Virus record (IMG/VR): IMGVR_UViG_3300044977_000070
Location: 1 to 64,000 of that record
Reading direction: 5' to 3' (one strand)
Origin: a virus
DNA length: 64,000 nucleotides
Positions within the stretch are counted from its first letter, which is position 1. Each line of letters opens with the position of its first letter. The notes beneath the pieces were generated by a model. The model saw only the letters and a program-made list of their open reading frames with translations, did no database searches and was not told the DNA's origin. Positions 16,943-43,336 of this stretch are shown here, in pieces. The translations under genes and the position numbers were made by a program.

Positions 16943-18310
16943 ATGGCAAAGACCATGACGCGCCAAGCAGCACGTACAATCGCGGCTGTCGTGCCTTTCG
17001 TTAAGGCGAAGCTGGCGCAGGACGAAGCGGTTGATTTCACGAAGTTGCTTGCGGGCGTCAAAGCGGAAACGTTTACCGACCAGAAGCCAAAACTCCTGGA
17101 AGGAATCCGTAAGCTCACCAAAGGCAAGTTGGCACAAGACGCCTCTATTGGCGAACTTGCTGAGATGCTCGACCTTCTCGATTCTCATGGCGTCGAGCAG
17201 GACGAGGACGTATCAGAGGCGCAGCACGAAGCCATGATGGCAACGGCTCAAGGAAAAGGAGACCGCAAGATGCGAGGACGACATGCTGACGATCGGCGTC
17301 GTCATGCTGATGACCGAAGGCGTGCAGACGATCGCCGGCATGCCGACGACGAGCACGAGGATCACGAGGAGGTGGATCGGACGTCCCAGGAGTTCCATGG
17401 GGGTGGTGGGGAGGATCGTCGCCGAGGCGCTCGTGACCGTCGCGCCGATGACATGAACCAGGGTGAGATTGAGCGTGAGCACCAGCCCTTCCGCGAGGGC
17501 GAGGATATGGGCGAGCCGGACGATTATGACGATCCGACTGAGTTCACCATGAAGCGTCGGGACGCGGCGGACGAGGAAGAGGAAGAGGAGTTCGAGTCCC
17601 CCGGCGAGAAGTTGGAAGACCTGGGTGCCGAGACGGGCGAGGATGATTTCGAGGCTGGGCAGCCCCATGCCGAGGAGACGCGCAGCAACGAGTACGAGTG
17701 GCGCCGCGGCTCAATGAAGGGGCCCGTCACTGACAAGCGTCGGGGAATGGACAGGCGACGCGGCATGGACAAGCGCTATGCGGACGATCGCCGGCATGCG
17801 GATGACAGGCGCAAGGGCATGGACAAGCGTCGGGCCGCCGACAAGCGTGGGCGGGCCATGGACGAACCCCCTCCGTTCAAGGGACGCCCGAATCCCGGGG
17901 GATCGATGGACAAGCGTCGGGCCATGGATCGCCGGGGCCACGCCCAGGACGCTAGGGAAACGGTAACACGCGTCGAAATGGAGGCCGCCATCCAGGCCGC
18001 GGCAAAGGCCGCCACCGCACGTGAGAGGGCGATACGGGACGCAGAACGTCGGGTCCAGCCGTATATCGGCAACGTCAATATGTCATTCGACAGCGCAAAC
18101 GCTGTTTACGAGCATGCGTTGAAGCTGTTGAAGATTGACACCAAGGGGGTGCACCCCTCTGCCTTCCCGACCCTGCTCAAGTATGCCCAGAAGCCAGGCG
18201 CCAACAACTCCAACCCGCGTCCGGCCATGGCGGCTGACTCCATCTCCCGCAACGGGACGCAATCCTTCTTCAACATGTTCCCCGACGCACGGCGGTTGCG
18301 TATCGGTTAA
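16943..18310 (+). CDS. putative scaffolding protein with Arg/Asp tandem repeats
   Basis: 455 aa with an AAGGAG ribosome-binding site. It lies between the DUF2213-like gene and the capsid genes and is highly charged. Confidence 0.5.
   Translation: MAKTMTRQAARTIAAVVPFVKAKLAQDEAVDFTKLLAGVKAETFTDQKPKLLEGIRKLTKGKLAQDASIGELAEMLDLLDSHGVEQDEDVSEAQHEAMMATAQGKGDRKMRGRHADDRRRHADDRRRADDRRHADDEHEDHEEVDRTSQEFHGGGGEDRRRGARDRRADDMNQGEIEREHQPFREGEDMGEPDDYDDPTEFTMKRRDAADEEEEEEFESPGEKLEDLGAETGEDDFEAGQPHAEETRSNEYEWRRGSMKGPVTDKRRGMDRRRGMDKRYADDRRHADDRRKGMDKRRAADKRGRAMDEPPPFKGRPNPGGSMDKRRAMDRRGHAQDARETVTRVEMEAAIQAAAKAATARERAIRDAERRVQPYIGNVNMSFDSANAVYEHALKLLKIDTKGVHPSAFPTLLKYAQKPGANNSNPRPAMAADSISRNGTQSFFNMFPDARRLRIG
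17273..17941 (+). repeat. in-frame short tandem repeats (HADDRR and MDKRR types)
   Basis: RGRHADDRRRHADDRRRADDRRHADD (about 17273-17350) and KRRGMDRRRGMDKRYADDRRHADDRRKGMDKRRAADKRGRAMD...MDKRRAMDRRG (about 17732-17941). Confidence 0.8.
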
Positions 18311-19389: not shown

Positions 19390-20490
19390 ATGAACCTTCA
19401 AGAAGCAATGTCAGCATGGCAAAGTCATTTGCCGATGCTGCGCGACCGCGGCGTCAACTTTGCCACCGGCGCGCAGCCATCCGCCTACACGCCGGATGAG
19501 TTCCGATACGACGTGAACCTCGCCATGGACACGATCCCGGCGATTATCACGACAGCGAACTCGTCCGTGCCTGCGTTCCTCACTACCATGATGGACCCGC
19601 AGGTATTCAAAATCCTGTTTGCCCCGAATAGGGCCGCGATCATTCTTGGCGAACAGCGCAAGGGCACCTGGTTGGATGAGACCGCCATGTTCCCGACCGT
19701 TGAGCACACGGGCGAGGTGAGCTCATACGGTGACTTCAATGAGAACGGCCGCACCGGCGTCAATACGGTTTGGCCCCAACGGCAGGCGTACCTGTTCCAG
19801 ACAATCAAGGAATACGGGGACCGCGAACTCGAACGTGCGGGCCTCGCCAAGATCAATTGGGTCGGGGAAATCGATATCGCCTCCGCTACCGTGATCAACA
19901 AGTTTACCAACCTTGCCTACTTCTACGGGATTGGGGGCTTGCAAAATTACGGCCTGCTGAACGACCCGACCCTGACCGCGGCTCTTACCCCTGCCGCCAA
20001 GGCGAACGGGGGCACCAAGTGGTTCACGGCGTCGGGCTCGATCAATGCGACGGCAAACGAGGTCTATAACGACATCCAGGCGATGTTCTACCAACTCGTC
20101 CTGCAAACGTCGGGCCTTGTCGAGGCGGACAGCAAACTCGTGCTGGCAATGTCGCCGCAATCGGAAGTCGCTTTGACAGCAACCAATTCGTTCAACGTGA
20201 ACGTATTTGATTTGCTGAAAAAGAACTTCCCAAATATCCGGTTCGAGACGGCAGTGCAATACGGCGTCATCTCGTCCTCGAACCCGCAGGGACAGGCGAC
20301 AGGCAATCTCGTCCAGCTCCTTGCGGAGGATATCGAGGGGCAGGACACGGGGTATTGCGCGTTCAATGAGAAGATGTACGCGCAGCCGATCGTCCGGCAC
20401 CTGTCCAGCTATCGACAGAAGGTCGTGGCGGGAGTTTGGGGAGCCGTGATAAGGCAACCTTTCGCAATCGTCTCCCTTTTGGGGGTCTAA
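19390..20490 (+). CDS. major capsid protein (DUF2184-like)
   Basis: 366 aa. Position (after protease/scaffold) and size fit, and the sequence style recalls DUF2184-type capsid proteins. No search was done. Confidence 0.7.
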   Translation: MNLQEAMSAWQSHLPMLRDRGVNFATGAQPSAYTPDEFRYDVNLAMDTIPAIITTANSSVPAFLTTMMDPQVFKILFAPNRAAIILGEQRKGTWLDETAMFPTVEHTGEVSSYGDFNENGRTGVNTVWPQRQAYLFQTIKEYGDRELERAGLAKINWVGEIDIASATVINKFTNLAYFYGIGGLQNYGLLNDPTLTAALTPAAKANGGTKWFTASGSINATANEVYNDIQAMFYQLVLQTSGLVEADSKLVLAMSPQSEVALTATNSFNVNVFDLLKKNFPNIRFETAVQYGVISSSNPQGQATGNLVQLLAEDIEGQDTGYCAFNEKMYAQPIVRHLSSYRQKVVAGVWGAVIRQPFAIVSLLGV

Positions 20491-23574: not shown

Positions 23575-24099
23575 ATGGATCAGATCTTTAAGTTGGGGGA
23601 AGTTTTAGGTCCGGCGGGTCCGGTGGGGGCCTTGGAACGTCCCCCCTCTGAAAAAAGGGAACGTAAATACTTGCCGACGTTCTCCGACCTCGTCGACCGC
23701 CTCACTATCTCGCAGATGAAGGCGATCTTTATTCCCGAGCGCAAGCGGGAGTATGTAGAGGAGATGGATTTGATCCTCCACGATCTCGACCTTATTCTTG
23801 AGGAAGGGGACGTCAGGCTGAATGCCCATGCGATCAAAGCCATTATCGTCATTATGCTGACGAATAGATTCATTTGGGAGAACGAGTCAAAAGCACGTGA
23901 AGGTGGTAATGAGCAGGATCAGCTACTTAAACTGACACACTCAATCAATGGGGTGCGAAATACAGCGAAGAACCAGCTCGCCGCTGTTATGGGTGGTCGG
24001 CACGACTACAAGATAGATGCCTTTGCAGCTAATCTGCCGACTGAGTTTAAAGCATGGGATATTTTCAATGATGGACGCGACGGTGAGGTTTCTGGATAA
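23575..24099 (+). CDS. hypothetical protein (first gene of the accessory island)
   Basis: 174 aa. The N-terminus is MDQIFKLGEVLG. The helical middle part, with NRFIWENESKAR and INGVRNTAKN, vaguely recalls DUF4254. Not verified. Confidence 0.45.
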   Translation: MDQIFKLGEVLGPAGPVGALERPPSEKRERKYLPTFSDLVDRLTISQMKAIFIPERKREYVEEMDLILHDLDLILEEGDVRLNAHAIKAIIVIMLTNRFIWENESKAREGGNEQDQLLKLTHSINGVRNTAKNQLAAVMGGRHDYKIDAFAANLPTEFKAWDIFNDGRDGEVSG

Positions 24100-24391
24100 G
24101 GGCAGGGGCGCGACGTGCGCGCCTAATCCGAAATATCCCAATGGCGTTGTCGTTGACATGTCGCGGGGGTTCGCCAAGAGATGTGGTTTCAAACTTCCTT
24201 ACCCCGCCCCCCGTTGTGGTGTCATGTATGTAGTATGTAACAAGTGTGGTGTGAGCGTCGGCATTACGGTTGCCGGGCGCCCTGACGATCCGCATACCGT
24301 GATCATTGGATGTCATGCCAACAAGTTCATGTTGATAGAGGACTTAGATAAGAATGAAAAAGCTTTTAACAGTTTTCTTTCTTCTAAGTAG
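24068..24391 (+). CDS. Cys-rich hypothetical protein
   Basis: The ORF is open from 24017; a plausible start is the ATG at 24068. Contains several Cys (CAPNP, RCG, CNKCG, GCH). Confidence 0.3.
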   Translation: MMDATVRFLDKGRGATCAPNPKYPNGVVVDMSRGFAKRCGFKLPYPAPRCGVMYVVCNKCGVSVGITVAGRPDDPHTVIIGCHANKFMLIEDLDKNEKAFNSFLSSK

Positions 24392-24704
24392 CTCAGCACT
24401 CGCTTTTGACAATGGGCAATATGGGAACGTAGACCCGAAGATTCGGGATTGGTTCAAGGGCGTTCGTAGTCCGAACGGTGTTCCATGCTGTGACATTGCC
24501 GATGGGCATTATACAAGTTGGCGTAAGTCGGAAACCGTTGGGTACGAGTTTGATGTGCCAATAGAGGGCGAGTGGGTTCCTGTGCCACCGTCCACTATCG
24601 TCAAGAACGCCCACAATCCCACGGGCGATGCCATTGTTTGGTATGTAAGGCAGACGCCGGGGGGTTGGTATATCCGGTGCTTCGTACTTGGGAGTGGCGC
24701 GTGA
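24354..24704 (+). CDS. secreted hypothetical protein
   Basis: 116 aa. Signal peptide MKKLLTVFFLLSSSALA; contains a CC pair (GVPCCDIADGHY). Confidence 0.5.
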   Translation: MKKLLTVFFLLSSSALAFDNGQYGNVDPKIRDWFKGVRSPNGVPCCDIADGHYTSWRKSETVGYEFDVPIEGEWVPVPPSTIVKNAHNPTGDAIVWYVRQTPGGWYIRCFVLGSGA

Positions 24705-25330
24705 AGTATTTATTGACTGCCGAGCAGCTTATTGGATTTGAGAAGACTATTGCCGATGCTTACAACTCGGGCGTCATTCGTGCGCCGGTGCATTTGTCGG
24801 GCGGCAATGAGGAACAACTTATCAAAATATTTAAGGACGTGGATGAGCAGGATTGGGTGTGCAGTGCATGGCGGTCGCACTATCACTGCCTACTGAAGGG
24901 AGTTCCTACGCAAACCTTTATGGAGGATATTTGGGCAGGAAGGTCGATTACGCTTTGCTATCCCGAGCAACGCGTTATTACGTCCGCGATCGTCGGCGGG
25001 ATCATTCCGATTGCCCTTGGCATTGCACTTGGGATCAAGCGACAAGGCGGCACCGAAAAGGTTTGGTGTTTCGTCGGCGACATGACGGCTGTCGGTGGGG
25101 CTTTTCATGAAGCCCTGAACTACGCGGTTGGTTCTGATCTTCCTATTAAGTTCATTATCGAGGATAATGGAAAATCTGTGGGCACGGATACGAGGGATGC
25201 GTGGGGTCCTGACTCCAAATCGGTTTTGGATTTGTATGATTATGAGTTTCCATATTCGAGTTATATTTATTATTACCAGTATGAATTGCCATGGCCCCAC
25301 GCGGGCGCTGGAAAATGGGTTGAGTTCTGA
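24701..25330 (+). CDS. thiamine-diphosphate enzyme, E1-alpha-like (PP-binding) subunit, short form
   Basis: GTG at 24701 overlaps the upstream stop (GTGA). The ThDP motif is GDMTAVGGAFHEALNYAVGSDLPIKFIIEDNG (GDG-x25-NN type). Confidence 0.62.
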   Translation: MKYLLTAEQLIGFEKTIADAYNSGVIRAPVHLSGGNEEQLIKIFKDVDEQDWVCSAWRSHYHCLLKGVPTQTFMEDIWAGRSITLCYPEQRVITSAIVGGIIPIALGIALGIKRQGGTEKVWCFVGDMTAVGGAFHEALNYAVGSDLPIKFIIEDNGKSVGTDTRDAWGPDSKSVLDLYDYEFPYSSYIYYYQYELPWPHAGAGKWVEF

Positions 25331-25332
25331 AA

Positions 25333-25515
25333 ATGGCAAATCATGTTGCGAAACGTATATGGACTTCTGATGGGCTTTGGGCCTATGAGTATGGAAGTGA
25401 CGGAAGTCTTATGAATATTATCCCGAGGGCCTATGTATCTGAGCCTGCGGATGAGGAAGTGGTTTCTGGCAGAAGTGCCGTCGAAGCCGTGTCAGTTTCA
25501 CAGAATGGCAATTAA
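25333..25515 (+). CDS. small hypothetical protein
   Basis: 60-aa ORF between the two ThDP subunit genes. Confidence 0.35.
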   Translation: MANHVAKRIWTSDGLWAYEYGSDGSLMNIIPRAYVSEPADEEVVSGRSAVEAVSVSQNGN

Positions 25516-26043
25516 ATGTCCGCATATTTCGATCGTCTTTGCGAGGCCATGGAATTGCTGGCGCAGCAGCCGCGCGTCCTGTTCATGGGGCAGGCGGTGG
25601 CATGCCCCGGTACCGGCATGAGTAGGAGTTTCAAGAATGTTCCTCCCGAAAGTTTGTTGGAATTGCCCGTCGCCGAGGACATGCAGATGGGCCTTTCTAT
25701 CGGTTATGCTCTCCAGGGTGGTTTCCCCGTCTCCATTTACCCACGTTTCAATTTTCTCCTGCTCGCAATTAACCAACTCGTCCTCCACCTCGACAAAATC
25801 CCGATTTACAGCAACGGGGGGTACAAGCCCAAGGTCATTATTCGGACGGCTGTTGGGGCGGAGACGCCGCTCTACCCGGGTGCGCAGCATGTAGGGAATT
25901 ATTGCGACCCCTTGCGTCTCATGTTGCAGAAGGTGGAGGTGATCGAGTTGCAGGAGGAAAGTCATATCCTCTCTGCGTACAGGTATGCAATTACGAGAAC
26001 GGATCGTTCTTTTCTTCTGGTCGAGCATGCCAGCAAATATTGA
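25516..26043 (+). CDS. thiamine-diphosphate enzyme, E1-beta/transketolase pyrimidine-binding-like subunit, short form
   Basis: 175 aa. LPVAEDMQMGLSIGYALQGGFPVSIYPRFNFLLLAINQLV parallels the E1-beta block (P-x-x-E-x-x-x-x-G-x-x-x-G-x-A-x-x-G). There is no C-terminal transketolase_C domain. Confidence 0.6.
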   Translation: MSAYFDRLCEAMELLAQQPRVLFMGQAVACPGTGMSRSFKNVPPESLLELPVAEDMQMGLSIGYALQGGFPVSIYPRFNFLLLAINQLVLHLDKIPIYSNGGYKPKVIIRTAVGAETPLYPGAQHVGNYCDPLRLMLQKVEVIELQEESHILSAYRYAITRTDRSFLLVEHASKY

Positions 26044-26051
26044 GGCGGCTA

Positions 26052-27248
26052 ATGGAAAGTTTTGAAATGGCAGCATCCAAGTGGTGGTATCCAACTGGCT
26101 TTGCGGCATGGGGGGACGAGGAACGACACGCGATCAATTGCGTCATGAAGAGCGGCCGTTTCACGTGTGGCGAACGCGTCGCGGCATTCGAGGAGGCCTT
26201 TGCCAGATATCATGGCCGCAAGTACGGGATCATGTGCAACTCGGGTTCGTCTGCGAACCTTCTCATGATTGCGACTTTATTTCATTTGCAGAATAGGCCA
26301 TTGCAGCGCGGTGACGTTGCGCTTGTCCCGGCCATTGCTTGGTCGACCACCTATGCCCCGCTAGTGCAATATGGGTTGCATATTAGTTTGATGGATTGCG
26401 ATGCCACATGGAACGCCAATACATTTTATAGGCCTTGTCGGCTTGTTGTTGGGTGTTCCATTCTTGGCAATCCCGCCGATTTGTCTAATCTTGCTTATCA
26501 TGCCGGTGAATGTGGCGCTTATTTCATTGAGGACAATTGCGAGAGCTTCGACGCACGATTGCCTGCCACTAATGGCGATGTATCGGCCTATGGCGACTTT
26601 GTGGGGGTGTGCGGGACATATGGCGTCATGTCCTCGTTCTCGTTCTTCTACTCGCACCAGATTTCCGCGATCGAGGGCGGCATGGTACTGACGGACGACA
26701 AGGAAATGGCGACGCTGTGTCGAATGCTGCGCGCGCATGGCTGGTCAAGGGATGTAGAACCCCCTGCTCATTTCGACCAGGAATACGACTTCCGCGTCTT
26801 TGGGTACAATGTTCGCCCCCTCGAATTGCACGCGGCAATAGCGCATGTTCAGCTGAGTAAGCAGGTCGAGCATAAGCGTCTTCGTCAGCAGAATATGAAA
26901 CTGTTCCGTGAGCTGACGAGGGGGCTGCCGATCAAGCACCCGACGCCTTATGGCGACATGAATCCATTCTGTCTTAACTTCATAGTGGATCACAATAGGG
27001 ACGGCGTGCAGCTGGATAATAGCAAACGCGCCGATCTTGTCCGCGCCTTGCGTGCCGCCTCGATAGATTGTAGATTGCCGACAGGCGGTTCCTTCCGCAA
27101 GCATAAGTACGGAAGGATTGCGCGACACCAAGAAACGCCCAACGCCGATCGTATCCACGACACAGGTCTTTTTCTAGGAAATGGCGCACTTGATCTCTCC
27201 GAGAGGATTGGTCGGGCGGTAGCCATTATGAAGGACGTTCTTGCATGA
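26052..27248 (+). CDS. DegT/DnrJ/EryC1/StrS-family PLP/PMP enzyme with His at the Schiff-base Lys position (ColD/E1-type sugar 3-dehydratase candidate)
   Basis: ATG at 26052; the ORF is open from 25902. NSGSSANL and SFSFFYSHQISAIEGGMVLTDD: where aminotransferases of this family have Lys, this protein has His (codon CAC at 26655-26657). Confidence 0.65.
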   Translation: MESFEMAASKWWYPTGFAAWGDEERHAINCVMKSGRFTCGERVAAFEEAFARYHGRKYGIMCNSGSSANLLMIATLFHLQNRPLQRGDVALVPAIAWSTTYAPLVQYGLHISLMDCDATWNANTFYRPCRLVVGCSILGNPADLSNLAYHAGECGAYFIEDNCESFDARLPATNGDVSAYGDFVGVCGTYGVMSSFSFFYSHQISAIEGGMVLTDDKEMATLCRMLRAHGWSRDVEPPAHFDQEYDFRVFGYNVRPLELHAAIAHVQLSKQVEHKRLRQQNMKLFRELTRGLPIKHPTPYGDMNPFCLNFIVDHNRDGVQLDNSKRADLVRALRAASIDCRLPTGGSFRKHKYGRIARHQETPNADRIHDTGLFLGNGALDLSERIGRAVAIMKDVLA

Positions 27249-28186
27249 CAACACGAGTTCTTATTACAGGCGGTGCAGGATACATTGGTTCTATTCTTAC
27301 GGAGTTGTTGATTGGTCCTCCCCATGACATTACAGGTTTTGACGTTGTGGTGGTGGACAGTTTTATGTGGAATCAAACAAGTCTCAATCACCTGTCCTGC
27401 AATCTCAACCTTGAAATCGTCAAGGGCGATTGCCGTGATATGCGGCTTATGGGACCATTGCTGAAGCAATGCGATGTGTTCATTCCGCTTGCGGCGCTTG
27501 TCGGTGCGCCTTTGTGCGAGCAGCGTCAAGAGGATGCACAGACGATTAATTGTGAAGCTGTGGACGACGCGGTCAAGCGCTTGAGTCCGGATCAACGCGT
27601 GCTCATCCCGAATACAAACAGCGGTTATGGGACGGTTCCTGTTGGAGAATGCACGGAGGAAACACCGTCCAATCCGTTGAGCGTTTATGGACGAACTAAG
27701 CAGGAAGCGGAAAACTTCGTTTTGCAGAGACGGAATGCCGTCAGCTTCCGTCTCGCGACCGTGTTCGGCATGAGCCCGCGGATGCGCATGGATTTGCTCG
27801 TCAATGACTTTGTATGGCGTGCCATGACGGACGGTTATGTCGTGCTCTATGAACCCGATGCCATGCGCAACTACATCCACATCCGGGACGTCGCACGCGT
27901 TTTCTTGCATGGGATTACGCAGATTCCCGATGGCGCTTATAATGTCGGACTGTCCACTGCCAACATGTCCAAGGTTGGGTTGTGCAAGGAAATACAAAAA
28001 CAGTTCCCATCTTTCGAGGTCAGAACTTCTTCTTTTGGCGTAGACCCTGACAAGCGGGATTACGTCGTATCGAATGCCAAAATTGAGAAGTCAGGCTTCA
28101 TGCCCAAGTTTGGTCTGGGCGAGGGCATTATGGAGTTGCGCAAGGGGTATCAGCAAATGCGGAGGCACCAGTATGGGAACGTATAG
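27245..28186 (+). CDS. NAD(P)-dependent sugar epimerase/reductase (extended SDR)
   Basis: 313 aa. Rossmann motif TGGAGYIGS and catalytic YGRTK (YxxxK). ATGA overlap with the upstream gene. Confidence 0.75.
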   Translation: MTTRVLITGGAGYIGSILTELLIGPPHDITGFDVVVVDSFMWNQTSLNHLSCNLNLEIVKGDCRDMRLMGPLLKQCDVFIPLAALVGAPLCEQRQEDAQTINCEAVDDAVKRLSPDQRVLIPNTNSGYGTVPVGECTEETPSNPLSVYGRTKQEAENFVLQRRNAVSFRLATVFGMSPRMRMDLLVNDFVWRAMTDGYVVLYEPDAMRNYIHIRDVARVFLHGITQIPDGAYNVGLSTANMSKVGLCKEIQKQFPSFEVRTSSFGVDPDKRDYVVSNAKIEKSGFMPKFGLGEGIMELRKGYQQMRRHQYGNV

Positions 28187-28472: not shown

Positions 28473-28559
28473 GGCGTCGCACAGTGCGGTAACGGCGGGG
28501 ACCCTAGGAATGGGTCCCCTTTCCCTTGAAAAACGTCCCATACCGAGGCATTGAGGCAC

Positions 28560-30095
28560 ATGCTTGATTTGTTAATTGTGAACGCGGGAGCAGCTCATGG
28601 TGTGTACGGATCGGATCTTGCTGATTCCCTTATTGCTGTCGAGCCGCCCCTGTGGTGTCGCCTGATTGCGGGGTACGTGCGCGATCATGGATTCTCTGTC
28701 GAGATTATCGACGGGGAGGCAGAGGGGATGTCCCCCGAGAGCATTGCAATCGAGGCGGCATTGGAGGCCCCCCGACTTGTTTGTATCGCCGTTTATGGTC
28801 ACCAACCCTCCGCCTCGACACAGCAAATGGACGCGGCATTGCGAATTGCCGCGCTCATTCATGAGAGAACCGCCGGTCACCAGGCGCAGATTCTCGTCGG
28901 TGGGCATGTCGCGGCCCTTCCCGAGCAGACGTTGCGCGAGAGCAAGGCGACCTTTGCCTGTAATGGCGAAGGACCAGAAACGGTGTTGCGGCTCCTGCAA
29001 AAGGAAAAACCCGCTTTAACACCATCATATGCGGATATTCCCGGCCTTGTGTGGCATTATCCTTATGACTTAACAGGTTCCACTTTCAAGTGGGAGGTTA
29101 TTAACAATCCCCCTGCCGAATTAATCGACGTTAACAAGTTGCATGGCAATGCATGGGATCTTTTGCCCATGCACAAATATAGGGCTCATAATTGGCAATG
29201 CTTCGACAACCTGGACTCCCGACAACCCTACGCGTCTGTCTACACGTCGCTTGGTTGTCCTTATGCGTGCTCTTTCTGTTGCATCAACTCGCCGTTCGGC
29301 AAGCGTCTTTATCGGCCGCGCAATCCAATGGCGGTCGCGGGGGAGATGCAGTTTCTCTACGAGAATTACGGAGTCAAGACATTCAAGATAGTGGACGAGA
29401 TGTTCGTCCTCAACGAGAGGCATTATCTTGGAGTAGCGAAGGAGATAATCAACCAACTGCCGGCGCACGAGCTGAATATTTGGGCCTACTCCCGCGTGGA
29501 TACGGTCAAGTCGGACAACCTGCCGATCCTCCGCAACGCGGGGTTCAAGTGGCTGGCGCTGGGGATCGAGAGCGAGAGCGCCTACGTGAGGGACGGGGCG
29601 AACAAGCGATTGAAGCGGGACGATATAGAGGAAGTCGTGCGGAAGATTCAGAGCTACGACATAAACGTCATAGGAAACTTCATATTCGGTCTTCCCGACG
29701 ACACCATGGACACGATGCGAGCTACGTTGGATTTGGCGTTGCGTCTTAACTGCGAGTTCGCCAATTTCTACTCTGCAATGGCGTATCCCGGAAGTCCCCT
29801 TTATGACGAGGCCGTGAAGAAAGGTTGGACGTTGCCCGATTCCTGGAAGGGGTATAGCCAACATAACTATGAATGCCGTCCCTTGGATACGCGTCACGTC
29901 AAGGCCGCCGAGGTTCTCAAGTTCAGGGACGAGGCCTTTCAAATCTACTTTCGCAATCCGAAGTACATTGACATGATAGATAGGAAGTTCGGCCCCCGTG
30001 CCGCCCTGCATGTTCGAGATATGACGAAGTTCAAATTGAAACGTCGTCTCATTGAAGAAACCCTCGCACCCGAATACGCGTGCGGAGGGCAGTAG
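28560..30095 (+). CDS. B12-binding-domain (class B) radical SAM enzyme, probable methyltransferase
   Basis: The ORF is open from 28551; the ATG is at 28560. N-terminal flavodoxin-like B12-type domain. CxxxCxxC cluster motif CPYACSFC. LALGIESES and FIFGLPDDT are typical of this class. Confidence 0.75.
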   Translation: MLDLLIVNAGAAHGVYGSDLADSLIAVEPPLWCRLIAGYVRDHGFSVEIIDGEAEGMSPESIAIEAALEAPRLVCIAVYGHQPSASTQQMDAALRIAALIHERTAGHQAQILVGGHVAALPEQTLRESKATFACNGEGPETVLRLLQKEKPALTPSYADIPGLVWHYPYDLTGSTFKWEVINNPPAELIDVNKLHGNAWDLLPMHKYRAHNWQCFDNLDSRQPYASVYTSLGCPYACSFCCINSPFGKRLYRPRNPMAVAGEMQFLYENYGVKTFKIVDEMFVLNERHYLGVAKEIINQLPAHELNIWAYSRVDTVKSDNLPILRNAGFKWLALGIESESAYVRDGANKRLKRDDIEEVVRKIQSYDINVIGNFIFGLPDDTMDTMRATLDLALRLNCEFANFYSAMAYPGSPLYDEAVKKGWTLPDSWKGYSQHNYECRPLDTRHVKAAEVLKFRDEAFQIYFRNPKYIDMIDRKFGPRAALHVRDMTKFKLKRRLIEETLAPEYACGGQ

Positions 30096-30149
30096 TCGTA
30101 CTGCGGTAGTTTTAACTATTCATTTTTAATGCCTATTCTTGTTATTCAA

Positions 30150-30176
30150 AGGAGGCGCTTAGTCGTAGCGCCTCCT
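30150..30176 (+). terminator. intrinsic terminator-like hairpin
   Basis: AGGAGGCGCT (30150-30159), a 7-nt loop, then AGCGCCTCCT (30167-30176), followed by ATTACTTTTAAT. Confidence 0.5.
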
Positions 30177-30215
30177 ATTACTTTTAATCCCCTTCCGTCT
30201 GGAAATTTGGCTGAT

Positions 30216-30761
30216 ATGAGCCTTCTCAAGAACGTCGCGAACCAGAACTTTACGTTCGCGCTTATCAATCCTGCAACTGACGCTGCGATGACCGGCGCGA
30301 CCATTACGGGGTTCGTGTCTAAGGATGGCGGCGCCCAGGCGTCCATTGCGGGTTCGGTTAGCGAGCTCGGCAACGGGGTTTATAACTACGTCCCGACCCA
30401 GGCGGAGACGAACGCTAATTGCGTTAGCTTCATGATGTCCGGTTCGACATCCAGCGGTACGGCCGTCCCTGAGAACCTTATGTTTCTCACGGGCGGGTTG
30501 CATAGGGCGACATCTGGGCAGCATATCACGTTCGGGCTATTCACGACGGCAGGCGTTGCCGATCCTAGCGCGACGGTTACGGTTAAGACTTCTAAGGATG
30601 GAAGTGCTCAGGCAGCCGGTGCGGGAACTGTAACGAATCTTGGTAATGGGCAATACGACTACGCACCGACGCAGGCGGAGACCGCCGGCAGCAATGTGTC
30701 GTTCCTCTTCACGGCGTCAGGTGACGTGCCTGTAAATATCTCGATCTTCACGGTGCCATGA
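30216..30761 (+). CDS. protein with a tandem-duplicated beta-rich domain
   Basis: ATG at 30216. The two halves align (SKDGGAQASIAGSVSELGNGVYNYVPTQAETNANCVSF against SKDGSAQAAGAGTVTNLGNGQYDYAPTQAETAGSNVSF). Confidence 0.5.
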   Translation: MSLLKNVANQNFTFALINPATDAAMTGATITGFVSKDGGAQASIAGSVSELGNGVYNYVPTQAETNANCVSFMMSGSTSSGTAVPENLMFLTGGLHRATSGQHITFGLFTTAGVADPSATVTVKTSKDGSAQAAGAGTVTNLGNGQYDYAPTQAETAGSNVSFLFTASGDVPVNISIFTVP

Positions 30762-32464
30762 TGAAGAAGCTTGCTGCATTGTTGCTGCTTATATTCTTTG
30801 CTTTTATTGAAACTGCGAGCGGGCAGCCAGTTATAACCCCGCCAGTTTTTATTCCGTCGTCTGGCAATGGTACTCATACGTTCACGCTCCCTACTGGGCA
30901 TTCCCTTCATTTCATTTCTACTACGGGCTCGGACTCAAATGATGGTTTGGCCCCAACCTCTGGCGGGGGACATGGGCCATGGCTGACACCAAATCATGTG
31001 ATCGACTGCGGGGACGTAATTCTTGTCGGGCCTGGGTCATACGGGAGCTCCGGGGCTGGTTCCCCGTTCACGGCCGGGAATTGGGGGAATGTATCCAACT
31101 GCCCGTCAACTACTGGTGGTATAGATGGCACTGGCGGAATCTATTTTGCGGTATTCCTGTGCGCCGGATCCGATTTGGTGAGTTGCAATGTAAATGGATT
31201 CGGTGGCAATGCCATCTGGCCAAACAGCACCGCTGGTGGTAATTGGTCAATCCAGGGGTTTCTTGGGACACAGAATGCAAACGCGTCGGATGGCACCTGT
31301 TTCTCAGCCGAAAACGACACGGACAATGGGGGGACAACGACTCCTCTAAACTATCTTGCATGGATGAATAACATTGCCTCAACCTGTGATCTTGGCGGGT
31401 TCGGAGTTGGGTCAGATATTTATCCAATGGGCGCGTGGGACCACGTTGCGGCGGTCGGTAACATTGGCTGGAACACGGCAGTATCGACAGGCGGTGGGGG
31501 CGGTATATGTGGTAGTAATATGTCCCTGATCGTTGCTCCTAGCGGCAGTGATCCAGGGACCCATACCTACACGGCTGGATGGTTCAGTTATTTTGGTAGG
31601 AACTCCGTGACCGGCAACGTGTGCCCGACCGGAAACTTCAATTCAGACGGCGAGGGGTTGATATGGGATTCCATTGCCCTGTCGGGTTATAACCATCAAG
31701 TCGTTGTTGAACAGAGTATAATGTGGCAGAATGGCAGTGCTTGTATCATGTTTTTCCCTGCTGGGAACGTGGCCGGTGATGACAAGGCGCAATATTATGC
31801 ATTCAATAATACTTGCGTAACCAATATGGCGGACCCGCATCATGTCGCCGGCGCGGAACTTTATCTTAATGGGGTGTCACCTACAACGACGGGTGTCTAC
31901 CATATTAACAACAACATTTTCCTAAACCCGTACATTTGCCCCGGAGGAATTGCCACATGTACAGGGGTGCAGGATGGGCAATGCGATCCTGGAAATACTG
32001 GTGTTTGCGCTGCTGCCGTGACGGGCTTTGGTGCAGTGTTGATCACGACCTATTCGTCACTGATCGATATCAGCGGGAATTACATCTTTGACAGCCATGT
32101 ACCGACCTCCAACAGTACTGGAGGCAACAATACATGGGTTGGGGACGCTGGGGGAACCCATTCCTGGGTATTCGGCACCAATACTTATGCTGATCCTGGT
32201 CTAGCGAACATAGCGTCCTTGCCGATTACGGCGCCGAATTGCACTGGGTTTAAGAAGGTTTATGATTGTATGGTAAATGCCGGCGTAATTGCAGCAGTGG
32301 CCAACTCGACAGGCGTCGGCTACCAGTCGCCCGGGCCATGCAAACCCAACCCATTTTACCCGACATGGCTCAAGGGAATGGACCATTTGGAAGCGTCTGG
32401 TTTTACCCTCAATGCGACGATTACTGAAGTGTATGGGAACATTAATCGCCCGTGCAATATGTGA
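30758..32464 (+). CDS. Sec-signal right-handed beta-helix (pectate-lyase-fold) protein, paralog 1
   Basis: 568 aa. Signal peptide MMKKLAALLLLIFFAFIETASG. STTGSDSNDG...PW...GDVILVGPGSY entry motif and NSDGEGLIWDS block. Confidence 0.6.
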   Translation: MMKKLAALLLLIFFAFIETASGQPVITPPVFIPSSGNGTHTFTLPTGHSLHFISTTGSDSNDGLAPTSGGGHGPWLTPNHVIDCGDVILVGPGSYGSSGAGSPFTAGNWGNVSNCPSTTGGIDGTGGIYFAVFLCAGSDLVSCNVNGFGGNAIWPNSTAGGNWSIQGFLGTQNANASDGTCFSAENDTDNGGTTTPLNYLAWMNNIASTCDLGGFGVGSDIYPMGAWDHVAAVGNIGWNTAVSTGGGGGICGSNMSLIVAPSGSDPGTHTYTAGWFSYFGRNSVTGNVCPTGNFNSDGEGLIWDSIALSGYNHQVVVEQSIMWQNGSACIMFFPAGNVAGDDKAQYYAFNNTCVTNMADPHHVAGAELYLNGVSPTTTGVYHINNNIFLNPYICPGGIATCTGVQDGQCDPGNTGVCAAAVTGFGAVLITTYSSLIDISGNYIFDSHVPTSNSTGGNNTWVGDAGGTHSWVFGTNTYADPGLANIASLPITAPNCTGFKKVYDCMVNAGVIAAVANSTGVGYQSPGPCKPNPFYPTWLKGMDHLEASGFTLNATITEVYGNINRPCNM

Positions 32465-32473
32465 GTATTCTGA

Positions 32474-33970
32474 ATGGCTACCAAAACTTTTTATTATCTT
32501 AACACCAATGCCGTAACGCCGAATTTCTACGGTAACTTGCAGGATGGCGGTTCAGCGCCAGCAACTGTACTTTCCACACGATTATCATGGACACCGGCAG
32601 CAGTCACGGCCCCATGTTTCTTCCGAGCACGTTGTGGCGCTACTGCAAACGCGACAGTTCACGCGACCACTTCATTTATTGACGCCGGCACGCCAAATTA
32701 TATTGGTCCGCAAATTGGGACTGGGACCACCAATACAACGGCTGGTGATTGTTTTGTCTCGCCGACCTCTTATCTAGGTTACTTTAATTCGGGTACTTGG
32801 ACCTTCAGCTTCAACTACCAGTCTAATGGCGGCGGTAATTTATCAATATCGATTAAAGCGAGAGTGTGGGCATGTAGGACCGCTAATGGCATTGATCTGG
32901 GCAATTCTACGTCAGGGCCTCGTGAGCTAACTGCCCTAAATGGCACATTGACTTTGGAATCTGGTGCAACTGGCGCAATGACCGGATCGGCCACGAATTT
33001 TCCGATAACCATTACTTGGACTGCCCCGACTATAGCGTTGTATAACGAATACCTATTTTTCCAGTTTGAGTGTCATGACAAAGTTGCTGGAGTATCTGGC
33101 CAAACTGCACAGTTGGTTGTGGGGAGTGGTTCCAATATTACAACCCCGAATTGGAATCCTGTCGCTGATCCATTGTCCGGCCGGCAGTGGGTTCAAAGCG
33201 CGTATTGGAACGGTGGAAGCGCCACTTCTCTAGCACCCGCATTCGCGAATGCTGTCACCTCTGGAAATGCCGTGATGGTTTTTTTTGGTGGTACTCAACC
33301 AGGTCCTAGGCCGACCGTAACTGTTACAGATAATGCAACCCCCGCGAATCTCTATACAGTCGTCACTACAATATGGACTGGCGATAGTGTTGATGGGGGA
33401 GATTTTTATGCTGGTATGGCCTACTGCTTGAATGTCAAAAATGGTCCCACTACTATTACTATTACAACTAGCGTGGCCTTTGGCGGCGTCGGCTGGGCTA
33501 GTATAGATGAGATCAGTGGGATTACCGGAACTTTGGACGGATATGTAATTGGAGATAGAGTTACAATCGGTACGAATCCCGGCTCGTGGCCAGCTGGGGC
33601 TAACAACATAACGACTGGAAATGCGCTTGGGTTCGGTGCTGCGACAACAGGTTATGAGGTCGGCGGTAAATTTGCCACTACGCAAGATGGGGATTTGATT
33701 TACTGCCAAGGCATGTCAGTCTCCGGGTATAATGTTGTGCCTGGAGATACAATATTAATGTGGCCTGGAAGTATTAATCACAACGCCGGATATGGAGGAT
33801 CATTCCTCGGTATTCAAACTACACACAGTTCGGATACTGCGGCAACTGCTGGAATGGGCTATAGCAATGATGAATTTATGCTTGGGGCAATGGCCTTTTC
33901 ACAGGCAAGCACGGCGATTCCTTATGATCCCTATATTTCGCAGCAGCTTGCGTCTATACTGGCTCAGTAA
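32474..33970 (+). CDS. hypothetical protein (beta-rich, two-domain)
   Basis: 498-aa ORF with no diagnostic motif. Confidence 0.5.
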   Translation: MATKTFYYLNTNAVTPNFYGNLQDGGSAPATVLSTRLSWTPAAVTAPCFFRARCGATANATVHATTSFIDAGTPNYIGPQIGTGTTNTTAGDCFVSPTSYLGYFNSGTWTFSFNYQSNGGGNLSISIKARVWACRTANGIDLGNSTSGPRELTALNGTLTLESGATGAMTGSATNFPITITWTAPTIALYNEYLFFQFECHDKVAGVSGQTAQLVVGSGSNITTPNWNPVADPLSGRQWVQSAYWNGGSATSLAPAFANAVTSGNAVMVFFGGTQPGPRPTVTVTDNATPANLYTVVTTIWTGDSVDGGDFYAGMAYCLNVKNGPTTITITTSVAFGGVGWASIDEISGITGTLDGYVIGDRVTIGTNPGSWPAGANNITTGNALGFGAATTGYEVGGKFATTQDGDLIYCQGMSVSGYNVVPGDTILMWPGSINHNAGYGGSFLGIQTTHSSDTAATAGMGYSNDEFMLGAMAFSQASTAIPYDPYISQQLASILAQ

Positions 33971-34662: not shown

Positions 34663-35847
34663 ATGAATGATATCCGCGCGAAGGTAAAAGGGAAGACGAT
34701 TGAGAACTTCCGCGGGTTCGATGGTACGCATGGCGTCGATCGTGCGAAAGCGTTGGCCGAGTGGGGAATGTTGGACGACGCGTTGAACGTGATCAATACA
34801 TGTCTTGTGCTTCAATCCGGAATGGATATCGCCTTGTTCAATCGGGGCGTGATACTTGCCAATATGGGACGATATGAGGAGGCCATCCCCGACTTTAACG
34901 ATGTGGTTATGTATCAGAATACGAATAAGACTCCCTCTGCTCATAAAGAGAATGCTATCTATGCGCGAGGTCTATGCAACCTTGCGCTTGGCAATCTTGA
35001 GGATGGGTTTCGGGAATACGAACCGCGTCGCCGCCATCTCACTGAGTTGCCTAAGCGACCACACTATACGGGTGCGGAGGATCTAAAGGGCAAGACGCTT
35101 TTCGTCGTTGGGGAACCTACGTGTTCCGAGAACTTGTTGTTCTCTCGTTTCCTGTCAAAGGTTCATTGTGATATTGCTTTTGCCGTTCCCCCTGCCCTGC
35201 AACTCATGTTTCACTGTTTCCCCGGCATTCGTCTCGTCAAGCATATGGACACGATTGGTTATTATGATTATTGGTGCACTTTAATGTCGCTTGCCGTGAC
35301 GTCCAAGGCGACTATGGAGACAATTCCACAGATTCCAAAGTTCGCGCTTCCTCTCGACAATACGATCCGCTGGCGCCCTGATATGGGGATTATGCAGTCC
35401 CGTCGTGTTGGTCTTTGTTGGTCGGGGCCGGAATGCCATGACAATGGGGATATGCCGCTTGAACTCATGTCGCCCCTCTTTGATTTGGAGGGCATCGAAT
35501 ACTTCTGCTTCCAGGACGAGGTGGTGGTAAGTGATCAGCCGGCATTCGATCGGCTTGACATATGGAATATGGGAAAGAAGTTTAAGAATTATATAGACGC
35601 CGCGTGCGCTCTCAAGTCAATGGATTTGTTGATTACGGTCGACAATGCCATTGCGCACATAGCCGCGACTCTGAATATTCCTTGCTGGGTTTTATTGCCG
35701 AAGTATAAGACGCATTGGTTGTGGGCAAGTAAGAAGAATGTTTGCCCGTGGTATCCTTCCGTACGCATATTTAGGCAGTATAAAGACGGCGATTGGTCAA
35801 CCGTAATCACGGAAGTCCAGAAATCCCTCGTCGAATTCTGTCATTAA
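34663..35847 (+). CDS. TPR-repeat + glycosyltransferase family 9-like fusion
   Basis: 394 aa. The N-terminus has TPR-like helices (RGVILANMGRYEEAIPDF..., ARGLCNLALGNLEDGF). The C-terminus (VGLCWSG ... MDLLITVDNAIAHIAATLNIPCWVLLP ... CPWYPSVRIFRQ) matches the heptosyltransferase-type GT9 signature. Confidence 0.7.
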   Translation: MNDIRAKVKGKTIENFRGFDGTHGVDRAKALAEWGMLDDALNVINTCLVLQSGMDIALFNRGVILANMGRYEEAIPDFNDVVMYQNTNKTPSAHKENAIYARGLCNLALGNLEDGFREYEPRRRHLTELPKRPHYTGAEDLKGKTLFVVGEPTCSENLLFSRFLSKVHCDIAFAVPPALQLMFHCFPGIRLVKHMDTIGYYDYWCTLMSLAVTSKATMETIPQIPKFALPLDNTIRWRPDMGIMQSRRVGLCWSGPECHDNGDMPLELMSPLFDLEGIEYFCFQDEVVVSDQPAFDRLDIWNMGKKFKNYIDAACALKSMDLLITVDNAIAHIAATLNIPCWVLLPKYKTHWLWASKKNVCPWYPSVRIFRQYKDGDWSTVITEVQKSLVEFCH

Positions 35848-39225: not shown

Positions 39226-39561
39226 ATGGCCTTGTTCAAGACTATAATCTTCTATCGCGGATCGACAATTATTTTCCTGACTACGTTCACGGATCAGAAT
39301 GGCAATGTCATTCAACCGCCGTCAGGTCAGGTAAGCGTCAATTTCAGCTCACCGTCTGGACAACAGACGGCGGTTATCAACATGCTCCCACCCGGGTCAT
39401 TTGGAGGGGACCCGACGCAGTGGTATGCCGCCTGGGATAGTCGCGGCGCCAACCCTGGACAAGTGAACTGGTCGGTGCATTCCGGGGTACCGACGCCCGT
39501 CGTTGTGGCGGACGGGTGGTTTCAGTTGAACGCCAATCCTGCGAACTTAATCTCGTTCTAA
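39226..39561 (+). CDS. hypothetical beta-rich protein
   Basis: 111-aa ORF that abuts the upstream stop. Confidence 0.45.
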   Translation: MALFKTIIFYRGSTIIFLTTFTDQNGNVIQPPSGQVSVNFSSPSGQQTAVINMLPPGSFGGDPTQWYAAWDSRGANPGQVNWSVHSGVPTPVVVADGWFQLNANPANLISF

Positions 39562-39571
39562 CGGAGGGGTT

Positions 39572-41942: not shown

Positions 41943-42590
41943 ATGGCAGTTTTAGATTATCATGAGCATTTAATTAGTAGCGACGTTATCGTGTTCGCCT
42001 TCGCTAGTGGGGGCAATGAGTTCTCACAGCACTTCGGGCATTTTGAGTTTGGCAATCTTCTACGCAAGTTGAAAATCGCGCATGTCCTGCTTAGGGACAG
42101 CACGGATAGGTGGTATCAGCACGGTGTTATTGGAATTGAAACGAAGAACGCCGTCGTCACTTATATAAAGGAGAGGGCTCGGGAATACCCGCGCGCCATT
42201 TCTATTGGCGTATCGTCGGGTGCCTATGCTGCCTTGATGTATGGACAACATGGACTTCGAGAAACAGGCGACGAAATCATAGCGATATCGCCGATCACGG
42301 GTAAAGGCGACGCCGTGAAGCCGGATTTTGACCTACAATGGTGGCGGCATATTGAGCATGGTCCGGAACATCCCCCGGTTCCGGATTTGAAGTTGTTGTT
42401 TCCGAAAGGCCCCATCCCCACAACTAATGCCTATATCAGTGACGGCGATGGCACATGGCTTGACCGTAAGATGGCTGAACGGATCGGGATCAAGAATATT
42501 CACCTGATACCGGGGTACACCCACGCCGCCCTCGCGCGCCATATGCGTGATATTGGTATGCTGGAAAAACTAATAAGAGGAAAAGAATGA
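41943..42590 (+). CDS. alpha/beta-hydrolase-like protein
   Basis: 215 aa with a GxSxG nucleophile elbow (GVSSG) after a beta-strand. Confidence 0.4.
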   Translation: MAVLDYHEHLISSDVIVFAFASGGNEFSQHFGHFEFGNLLRKLKIAHVLLRDSTDRWYQHGVIGIETKNAVVTYIKERAREYPRAISIGVSSGAYAALMYGQHGLRETGDEIIAISPITGKGDAVKPDFDLQWWRHIEHGPEHPPVPDLKLLFPKGPIPTTNAYISDGDGTWLDRKMAERIGIKNIHLIPGYTHAALARHMRDIGMLEKLIRGKE

Positions 42591-43336
42591 ACGATGCTGA
42601 ATATATTGAGTTGCTCAGGGCGTACGATAAGAATGAACCCTACTTCGGGCATGTCATGCATGCTGACCAAGGGCACCATAGATTTCAGCATTTCCCAAAA
42701 GTTGTTGAGTGCGCGAGAAAGGCGGTTGGTAGGGACACCCTCGATATCCTTGAGATTGGTTCGTGGGCCGGCGCCTCCCTGGTTGCTTGGGATAAGGCGT
42801 GCGAATCTGATTGCAAGCTTACGTGTATCGACCATTGGATGCCTTATTTGGAAGGCGCAAAGCCTCCGGGCGCTGCCGACATTATGACCGAGGCGGCTGT
42901 ATCGGGGTCTATTTTAAGGTTGTTTTGGCACAATGTTGGGACGTGTGGGCTGCTTCCCCGACTGCGCGTCTTTAAAGGATTCTCACGGGATATTTTGCCG
43001 ACGTTAGCCCCAAATTCATTCGATATTGTTTTTATTGATGGGAACCATCTCTATGACAGCGTGAACCACGATATTGTGAATACGAAGTCATTACTGCGCA
43101 ATGGCGGCGTCATGTGCGGCGACGATATGGAACTGCAGTTCCATGAAGTTATGGACAAAGGGATGTATCGTTCCGCATTGCAGCGCGGACTAGAATGCGT
43201 GCGTGACGGCAGCGGCCCAGGATATCACCCCGGTGTGACGGAGGCTGTTCATTGTAACTTTGGTTATGTGCAATCTTTTGATGGGCTGTGGGTACGACAG
43301 AAGGTGGACGACAAGTGGGAAGATACGAGGTTATAA
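42587..43336 (+). CDS. class I SAM-dependent methyltransferase
   Basis: 249 aa. Motif I is DILEIGSWAGAS. FDIVFIDGNHLYDSV is typical of the Methyltransf_24 / TylF-CmcI-like group. Confidence 0.6.
   Translation: MNDAEYIELLRAYDKNEPYFGHVMHADQGHHRFQHFPKVVECARKAVGRDTLDILEIGSWAGASLVAWDKACESDCKLTCIDHWMPYLEGAKPPGAADIMTEAAVSGSILRLFWHNVGTCGLLPRLRVFKGFSRDILPTLAPNSFDIVFIDGNHLYDSVNHDIVNTKSLLRNGGVMCGDDMELQFHEVMDKGMYRSALQRGLECVRDGSGPGYHPGVTEAVHCNFGYVQSFDGLWVRQKVDDKWEDTRL

Follow-up and report, generated by a model that had tools for sequence, protein, structure and literature searches.

A phage gene cassette predicted to tailor a nucleotide sugar into a 3-deoxy, carbon-branched form

Positions 1 to 64,000 of the IMG/VR virus record IMGVR_UViG_3300044977_000070, the stretch of DNA analyzed here and called the window, contain a sugar cassette encoding two short subunits (alpha and beta) of a thiamine diphosphate (ThDP) enzyme, a DegT-family protein, a short-chain dehydrogenase/reductase (SDR) and a B12-binding radical S-adenosylmethionine (SAM) protein (rSAM). 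The cassette is most likely a nucleotide-sugar tailoring module common to the phage and many bacteria, with a 3-deoxy, carbon-branched sugar as its product. The route that we favor, with slightly better than even confidence, leads from a nucleoside diphosphate (NDP)-heptose or NDP-mannose through oxidation at C4, deoxygenation at C3 and ThDP-dependent carbon-carbon addition at C4 to a radical-SAM step. The region had previously been singled out from its sequence (the original prediction) as a phage-encoded route to a yersiniose-like branched 3,6-dideoxyhexose. The sequence features on which that prediction rested were all confirmed at the positions given. The genes of the cassette are as follows.

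24701-25330, + strand: alpha, 209 aa, GTG start
25333-25515, + strand: small open reading frame (ORF), 60 aa
25516-26043, + strand: beta, 175 aa
26052-27248, + strand: DegT, 398 aa
27245-28186, + strand: SDR, 313 aa
28551-30095, + strand: B12-binding radical SAM protein, 514 aa

The consecutive junctions from alpha to the SDR gene measured 2, 0 and 8 nt, followed by a 4-nt overlap (ATGA) of the DegT stop and SDR start codons. Since the genes from alpha to SDR nearly abut or overlap, alpha, beta, DegT, SDR and B12-rSAM form a single translationally coupled operon. The SDR and rSAM genes are separated by 364 nt, and no conserved counterpart of this gap was found in related loci.

Relatives of alpha were collected from approximately 185,000 species-representative bacterial genomes and from IMG/VR viral contigs. 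They were present in 311 species, including Verrucomicrobia, Nitrospira, Burkholderiales and Saccharibacteria, and on 277 viral contigs. The gene set recurred in 80 bacterial and 80 viral loci, a recurrence well beyond chance. Residue conservation was counted over these loci, and gene content over those with full 10-kb flanks (39 bacterial and 32 viral).

As judged from its sequence, the DegT-family protein is a nucleotide-sugar 3-dehydratase of the ColD type, dependent on pyridoxal or pyridoxamine 5'-phosphate (PLP/PMP), and neither an aminotransferase nor an iron-sulfur (Fe-S) enzyme of the type of E1, the CDP-4-keto-6-deoxyglucose 3-dehydrase. The ORF holds SFSFFYSHQISAIEGG, in which the His encoded by CAC at 26655-26657 is His202 counted from the ATG at 26052. 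This His had been predicted to replace the Schiff-base Lys of the family, and in a phmmer search against the PDB it shared an alignment column with the catalytic His188 of ColD, with no Lys placed there instead. The ColD column was fixed by the deposited mutants H188N (3b8x) and H188K (2r0t), which differ from the wild type (2gms) there only. The same search gave a full-length match to ColD 2gms with 40% identity (E = 4.7e-61), a score of 1e-21 for E1 and approximately 1e-17 for the best aminotransferase; the motifs EDNCES and EGG were common to the window protein and ColD. The Cys-rich Fe-S insert of E1, RDCYCAPGCDNTC, aligned to a gap in the window protein, and the search for E1-type Fe-S ligands that had been proposed for this gene was thereby decided in favor of a ColD-type enzyme. 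The best NCBIfam match was RfbH, with 138 bits against a cutoff of 423, and no E3 reductase gene was found near the DegT gene. Assignment to the E1-type (RfbH/DdhC) Fe-S dehydrases was rejected because of the absent Cys insert, the weaker score and the absent E3 partner.

His occupied the catalytic column in 79/79 alignable neighboring DegT genes of related loci, and the DegT protein of the bacterial cassettes also matched ColD best (3.1e-50). The phage protein was 46-72% identical to those of related phages and 26-31% identical to the His-type DegT proteins of bacterial cassettes (loci L003-L086), unlike alpha, beta and the SDR, each of which was approximately 50-55% identical to its bacterial counterpart. 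The phage DegT gene seems either to derive from a different source than the rest of the operon or to have diverged more rapidly.

The extended SDR that had been predicted downstream carried TGGAGYIGS at residue 8 and YGRTK at residue 148. It matched PDB entries 6vo6/6vo8 with 51% identity over its full length (302 aligned residues, E = 1.3e-87). Entry 6vo6 was identified as Cj1427 through a published primer, Cj1427cF918 [PMC3546167]: in reverse complement, this primer codes for RAFKMMKV, the peptide with which the 6vo6 chain ends. Cj1427 is the GDP-heptose C4-dehydrogenase of Campylobacter jejuni; it is isolated with tightly bound NADH, which 2-oxoglutarate recycles to NAD+, and in vitro it forms GDP-3-deoxy-4-keto-heptose together with a ColD-like C3-dehydratase, glutamate and PLP, with 2-oxoglutarate as co-substrate [PMC10680097]. 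One SDR was encoded in the window and one in 35/39 bacterial loci, and no 4,6-dehydratase was found in the window or in 35/39 bacterial loci. Because it is the sole SDR, resembles Cj1427 and is not accompanied by a 4,6-dehydratase, the window SDR is probably an NDP-sugar C4-dehydrogenase that supplies the 4-keto substrate of the ColD-type enzyme at the start of the pathway. The role of final ketoreductase, which the original prediction had assigned to it, was not borne out by its 51% identity to a C4-dehydrogenase and its position as the only SDR of the window. As the ColD-type enzyme would yield 2-oxoglutarate at each turnover and Cj1427 uses 2-oxoglutarate, metabolic coupling of the two is possible.

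The gene content of the full-flank bacterial loci was as follows.

beta, 39/39
His-type DegT, 39/39
GHMP kinase, 39/39
Cj1427-like SDR, 37/39
B12-rSAM, 36/39
nucleotidyltransferase (NTP_transferase), 34/39
SIS, 11/39
beta, DegT, SDR and rSAM jointly, 34/39

The gene order in Verrucomicrobia was DAO, SDR, NTP_transferase, NUDIX, GHMP kinase, alpha, beta, DegT, rSAM and GT2, and that in Piscinibacter defluvii was GHMP kinase, alpha, beta, DegT, NTP_transferase, SIS, SDR, glycosyltransferase (GT) and rSAM. A GHMP kinase, an NTP_transferase and an SIS isomerase constitute the GDP-heptose route of C. jejuni [PMC10680097]. The bacterial cassettes carry the kinase, the nucleotidyltransferase and often the SIS gene, therefore indicating a heptose rather than a 6-deoxyhexose.

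All four partners of alpha were present in 26/32 full-flank viral loci. One group of viral loci (group 1) belonged to relatives of the window phage, with capsid proteins 61-78% identical and the layout capsid, orf174 (described below), alpha, beta, ColD-like protein (46-56%), SDR, rSAM, GT and other conserved genes, and sheath. The order in group 2 was rSAM, alpha, beta, GHMP kinase, DegT of the bacterial type and SDR. On marine phage contigs the cassette adjoined PfkB kinase and CTP_transf_like genes, corresponding to an ADP-heptose-type route, and in cyanophages fused alpha-beta genes lay within heptose gene islands. The literature yielded no description of this enzyme combination and no report of a product or an activity of either the ThDP pair or the rSAM.

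These data also bear on the yersiniose-like branched 3,6-dideoxyhexose, which would arise if the product of a host or phage 4,6-dehydratase (GDP- or CDP-4-keto-6-deoxyhexose) were 3-deoxygenated, C2-branched and reduced by the SDR. ColD, the nearest characterized relative of the DegT protein, naturally uses GDP-4-keto-6-deoxymannose, a compound made by many hosts, and since Cj1427 is isolated with NADH [PMC10680097], a relative acting as a reductase is possible in principle. However, the SDR resembles a C4-dehydrogenase and not ColC, YerF or known branch ketoreductases, the 4,6-dehydratase is absent from the window and from the great majority of bacterial loci, and the bacterial cassettes contain GDP-heptose synthesis genes and lack GMD. 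YerE, moreover, belongs to a different ThDP superfamily [PMC9306805, PMC12247030]. ThDP-dependent C2 branching by E1-type pairs, also invoked originally, is documented [PMC12247030]. We regard this product as quite unlikely. Without a 4,6-dehydratase there is no basis for 6-deoxygenation, and "3-deoxy" is therefore supported while "3,6-dideoxy" is not. What survives in spirit of the original pathway is 3-deoxygenation followed by ThDP branching; the SDR role, the 6-deoxygenation and the substrate class do not, and the scheme was incomplete in omitting the rSAM.

The alpha and beta genes encode an intact, strongly conserved and functional-looking minimal ThDP pair resembling E1 of the 2-oxo-acid dehydrogenases, an assignment that rests on profile matches, a fold model and conserved residues. 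In alpha, which represents the PP domain, the motif GDM-x25-EDNG corresponds to the diphosphate/Mg-binding site and fits the E1-type GDG-x(25-30)-N pattern; the motif had been predicted correctly, with its spacing trivially miscounted as x26. Pfam matched alpha to E1_dh (4.6e-15) and also to TPP_enzyme_C, and the profile TIGR03182 of pyruvate dehydrogenase (PDH) E1-alpha matched it (3.7e-25) over profile positions 16-179 of 315, i.e. the N-terminal half only. The AlphaFold2 (AF2) model of alpha (pLDDT 87) had human PDH E1-alpha as its best PDB match, with a TM score of 0.77 (query) or 0.46 (target), and alpha spans approximately 46% of the E1-alpha structure. Asn156, Gly126, His31, Arg58, His60 and His200 were invariant in 160/160 loci, and position 127 was Asp or Glu in 159/160. 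Beta matched Transket_pyr of Pfam (1.1e-5) and NF006667, PDH E1-beta (1.7e-8), at profile positions 9-133 of 327. It consists of the pyrimidine-binding (Pyr) domain only and ends short of the E1-beta/transketolase C-terminal domain (Transketolase_C), in agreement with what had been predicted for it. Glu54 of beta (PVAED) fell on the cofactor-activating Glu in alignments with E1-beta proteins of the PDB and was invariant in 157/157 loci.

The window pair departs from the canonical E1 architecture (alpha of 320-400 aa; beta with the C-terminal domain). Both ORFs have approximately half the length of a canonical E1 subunit and the 60-aa ORF lies between them, as might be the case if they were decayed E1 alpha/beta fragments, pseudogenes travelling with a colitose-type gene. 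Against this, alpha has thousands of homologues, every one of approximately 200 aa and with the same start and end, and clustering at 50% identity gave 112 clusters with E <= 1e-30. The cofactor residues are invariant, the fold is predicted with confidence, and a fused alpha+beta version exists as PHROG 34187 (405 aa) and in the cyanophages P-TIM68 and S-SM2. The pseudogene reading is refuted by these conservation data and its probability is practically nil; the loss of cofactor residues, which had been named as a possible outcome, did not occur. The pair is best described as an uncharacterised truncated sister family of E1. Since neither the C-terminal domain of E1-beta nor the C-terminal half of E1-alpha is present, the pair cannot belong to a dehydrogenase complex and should be a free decarboxylase/carboligase.

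The 60-aa ORF, which the original prediction had not mentioned, is in the frame of beta, and its stop codon is directly followed by the beta ATG. No homologue or conserved counterpart of it was found in any related locus. It is missing in phage contig L087 and in the bacterial loci, where beta starts within approximately 20 nt of alpha, and insertions at the alpha-beta junction are variable in related phages (approximately 60 to 1000 nt) and do not occur in bacteria. The status of this ORF is uncertain.

Linkage of the pair to other genes has to be weighed as well. Alpha and beta were linked to SIS/GmhA-type genes without DegT, SDR or rSAM homologues in loci L111, L146, L153, L163 and L170 and in cyanophages, beta matches the transketolase pyrimidine-binding domain, and 2-oxoglutarate is released by ColD-type enzymes and consumed by Cj1427 [PMC10680097]. 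The pair might accordingly act elsewhere and branch no nucleotide sugar, either like a transketolase on ketose phosphates (sedoheptulose-7-P or octulose-P) upstream of activation or as a plain 2-oxo-acid decarboxylase in the 2-oxoglutarate/pyruvate traffic of the SDR and DegT enzymes. This we consider unlikely, as in sequence and fold the pair is nearest to 2-oxo-acid dehydrogenase E1 and not to transketolase, a phage transketolase would be redundant given that of the host, and a His-type DegT gene accompanies alpha and beta in every full-flank bacterial locus.

The rSAM (28551-30095) matched PF02310 B12-binding (9.3e-16) and PF04055 Radical_SAM (7.6e-14) and has CPYACSFC at residue 236, so that both features examined for class B, an N-terminal B12-binding domain and a CxxxCxxC core, were found. 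Its best NCBIfam matches, far under the cutoffs, were HpnJ (2.3e-38) and BchE (4.8e-35), both of which are ring-forming enzymes. With its presence in 36/39 bacterial and 26/32 viral full-flank loci, the rSAM belongs to the conserved set. Two further genes of the window are candidates for later steps.

42587-43336, + strand: TylF-like sugar O-methyltransferase (Pfam Methyltransf_24 1.7e-18, TylF 3.3e-7), possible tailoring step
43337-44239, + strand: glycosyltransferase-like protein PF13524 (Pfam Glyco_trans_1_2 5.6e-9), candidate transferase for the product

A homologue of the methyltransferase was found in the related phage locus L091, and homologues of the PF13524 transferase in L088, L091, L103, L104 and L154. 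Elsewhere a PF13524 gene accompanies the cassette between SDR and rSAM in Piscinibacter and on the marine phage contig L173.

In the favored pathway, the Cj1427-like SDR would first oxidize C4 of a manno-configured NDP-sugar through its tightly bound NAD. The ColD-type enzyme would then eliminate the 3-OH with PMP derived from glutamate, His202 serving as acid/base catalyst, to give an NDP-3-deoxy-4-keto sugar and 2-oxoglutarate, the latter being the oxidant that would restore NAD+ in the Cj1427-like enzyme. In the third step, the minimal alpha/beta pair, devoid of E2-docking and regulatory parts, would act as a free-standing carboligase: a 2-oxo acid (pyruvate by analogy) would be decarboxylated and the acyl-anion equivalent added to the C4 ketone, yielding a 4-C-acyl tertiary alcohol. 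The B12-radical-SAM protein may then methylate the sugar or make a further carbon-carbon bond, and finally the PF13524 transferase and the TylF-like methyltransferase could attach and decorate the sugar on an acceptor, which would be either a protein of the virion or a surface glycan of the host. The first two steps would follow biochemically characterized enzymes to which the window proteins are closely homologous; we infer the third to fifth from fold, conserved cofactor residues, gene linkage and analogy. The product of the second step is of the acceptor type used by YerE-type enzymes, and the constant proximity of His-type DegT to alpha/beta in the bacterial loci suggests that the pair takes the DegT product. 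As no kinase, nucleotidyltransferase or isomerase is encoded in the window, the phage must use an NDP-sugar of the host.

Several points weigh against this pathway. The donor, acceptor and carboligase activity of alpha/beta are assumed, and with a single SDR it is not obvious which enzyme would reduce the ketone of the new side chain. The low identity between phage and bacterial DegT proteins (26-31%) means that their substrates may differ. With no heptose kinase, nucleotidyltransferase or isomerase found in the 64-kb window, the phage substrate could be another NDP-sugar of the host, with a nucleotide carrier that is itself only assumed; some marine phage versions, lying beside PfkB kinase/CTP_transf_like genes, point to an ADP-heptose type of route. 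The likeness of the rSAM to HpnJ and BchE holds at the family level only.

A more specific and speculative proposal, to which we give a low probability, is that cassettes with heptose-activation genes make a caryose-type C9 sugar with a carbocycle. The seven carbons of a heptose and the two of a pyruvate-derived acetyl group fit the nine carbons needed. The positions fit as well, with the 3-deoxy function from ColD chemistry, the 9-deoxy function from the acetyl methyl and the C4-C8 bond from the ThDP step. The HpnJ/BchE-like radical SAM protein would join C7 to the C8 carbonyl and thereby close a cyclopentane ring, and the atom and oxygen count of such a product matches 4,8-cyclo-3,9-dideoxy-nonose (C9H16O7), the caryose skeleton. 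Caryose biosynthesis has been stated to be unknown, and the radical SAM enzymes Cds and HpnJ are implicated in the formation of five-membered carbocycles from sugars [PMC9092360]. A protein search seeded with the Herbaspirillum alpha listed Herbaspirillum, Massilia and Nitrospira as its only named matches, and a plasmid search for a link of the cassette to a caryose producer gave nothing. Were the proposal true, phages would carry a route to decorate virions or remodel host glycans.

Branched and deoxy sugars shape bacterial surface antigens and the receptors recognized by phages. NAD, PLP/PMP, ThDP and B12/radical-SAM chemistry, all four of them demanding, come together in the approximately 5.4 kb of the cassette, which recurs in hundreds of bacteria and phages and is a good lead to a sugar as yet undescribed. 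The pathway is directly testable; homologues have already been used to reconstitute its first two steps [PMC10680097]. If worked out, it could yield a new nucleotide sugar, possibly higher-carbon or carbocyclic, and the smallest known E1-type ThDP carboligase, of interest for tertiary-alcohol biocatalysis, and could explain why unrelated phages (myoviruses of the window type and T4-like cyanophages) carry heptose-modifying genes.

The window is a portion of the genome of a tailed phage, a myovirus, as seen from the following genes.

3401-5131: large terminase
7159-10098: portal
14535-16832: prohead protease domain protein
19390-20490: major capsid protein
51431-52165: neck terminator
52178-53899: sheath-like DUF3383 protein

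Baseplate hub and Baseplate_J proteins are also encoded. The sugar cassette lies inside the structural module, between head genes and tail genes, which upholds its predicted encoding by a phage. No deposited phage had a major capsid protein more than 48% identical to that of the window, and a DNA search with the cassette region against 50,697 phage records gave no match.

Upstream of alpha lies a further gene found in viral loci.

23575-24099, + strand: orf174, phage-specific companion gene, conserved core from approximately 23659

In 20/80 viral loci and 0/80 bacterial loci, a homologue of orf174 immediately preceded alpha or adjoined the SDR gene. The protein belongs to a very large family without annotation (at least 8000 matches, proteins of approximately 134 aa), whose members occur in phage sugar/heptose islands, adjoining alpha, a Cj1427-like SDR or a PfkB kinase (L091-L157, L171-L174). 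Ten members checked against Pfam gave nothing save a weak match to DUF4254 (E = 0.065). The AF2 model of orf174 (pLDDT 79) predicted a four-helix bundle, and neither a profile search of the PDB nor Foldseek with this model returned a fold match or a function. Two small ORFs (24017-24391 and 24354-24704) lie between orf174 and alpha. The Cys-rich one, of 124 aa, has a counterpart with 53% identity in phage contig L087, and the other, a signal-peptide ORF of 116 aa with a PCCDIADGH motif, had a weak match in L103. The majority of related phages have no such intervening ORFs, and their orf174 adjoins alpha directly.

Other genes of the window were noted as well. The left end (674-1213) codes for a NusG-like protein (PF02357, E = 6e-13). 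A PNP_UDP_1 phosphorylase superfamily protein (6497-7150, E = 4.6e-10) has the terminase on one side and the portal on the other; if it is a methylthioadenosine (MTA)/S-adenosylhomocysteine (SAH)/5'-deoxyadenosine nucleosidase, it could clear the inhibitory by-product of the phage radical SAM protein. The protein of 14535-16832 is a fusion in which the DUF2213/prohead-protease domain (residues 598-764) is preceded by a NUDIX domain (residues 101-210), and the NUDIX protein of the verrucomicrobial cassette matched it weakly at 14757-14999 (35% identity, E = 2e-6). The 455-aa protein of 16943-18310 has long charged repeats of the DDRRR/HADDRR type and a C-terminal part matching head-maturation protease/scaffold PHROGs, and is probably a scaffold. 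Five large ORFs rich in Gly, Thr, Ser and Asn (210, 568, 498, 786 and 735 aa) occupy 30129-33970 and 36865-41779; they had no family matches except one weak parallel beta-helix repeat and are probably fibers or depolymerases interleaved with the sugar genes. The 394-aa protein of 34663-35847 has N-terminal tetratricopeptide (TPR) repeats followed by a C-terminal region of approximately 300 aa, for which the PDB, Pfam and NCBIfam gave nothing beyond the TPR repeats. No homologue of this protein was found in related loci, and a role as a protein glycosyltransferase is only a guess. The proteins of 44232-44996 (254 aa) and 45942-46853 (303 aa) had no family matches and were 35-63% identical to proteins of related phages, where their genes lie between the sugar cassette and the tail genes, adjoining the PF13524 transferase.

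Compared with known systems, the DegT protein shares with ColD of E. coli O55 (PDB 2gms) the full-length fold, the His in place of the Schiff-base Lys and the lack of an Fe-S cluster and an E3 partner. ColD, however, belongs to a colitose cluster with GMD and ColC, both missing from the window locus, whereas the window DegT has a ThDP enzyme and a B12-rSAM as partners, and its substrate is probably not 6-deoxygenated. The heptose C3-dehydratase of C. jejuni HS:5 is likewise ColD-like and works on the Cj1427 product in vitro [PMC10680097]. With Cj1427 the window SDR has its length and the Rossmann GxxGxxG and YxxxK motifs in common, and its bacterial relatives adjoin GDP-heptose genes as in C. 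jejuni. Of the GDP-heptose synthesis genes that would be expected beside a Cj1427-type enzyme (GmhA, HddA and HddC), the bacterial loci have GHMP kinase (39/39), NTP_transferase (34/39) and SIS (11/39) genes, none of which occurs in the window. In C. jejuni Cj1427 feeds epimerases and C4-reductases; the window has neither and encodes instead the 3-dehydratase, the ThDP enzyme and the rSAM.

The sugar-branching pairs of actinomycete antibiotics (AlmDI/DII, KbDH and, for avilamycin, the AviB1/B2 class) consist of full-length E1-like subunits, whereas the window alpha has 209 aa and the window beta 175 aa without the C-terminal domain. E1-type (alpha-KADH2) alpha/beta enzymes add pyruvate-derived C2 branches to keto-sugars, as AlmDI/DII in aldgamycin and KbDH-alpha/beta in kibdelomycin, and the chemistry expected of the class is pyruvate decarboxylation and addition to a ring ketone [PMC12247030]. 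The window pair, likened to this class by description only, shares with it a two-subunit E1-like ThDP enzyme beside deoxy-keto nucleotide-sugar enzymes. Unlike the antibiotic pairs, the window-type pair is found in surface-glycan contexts, both in phages and in environmental bacteria, Gram-negative ones among them. YerE-type enzymes perform ThDP-dependent acyl addition at C4 of 3-deoxy-4-keto nucleotide sugars [PMC9306805], and the YerE/ErwE family (yersiniose, erwiniose, caryophyllose) thus has the reaction type proposed for the window pair. YerE is a single-chain ThDP enzyme resembling decarboxylases and acetolactate synthase (ALS), in contrast to the E1-like alpha/beta of the window, and membership of the window pair in this family (TPP_enzyme_N/M/C) was rejected because the Pfam matches were E1_dh and Transket_pyr on two polypeptides. 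The YerE system further draws its CDP-3,6-dideoxyhexose substrates from E1/E3 and has a dedicated reductase, YerF.

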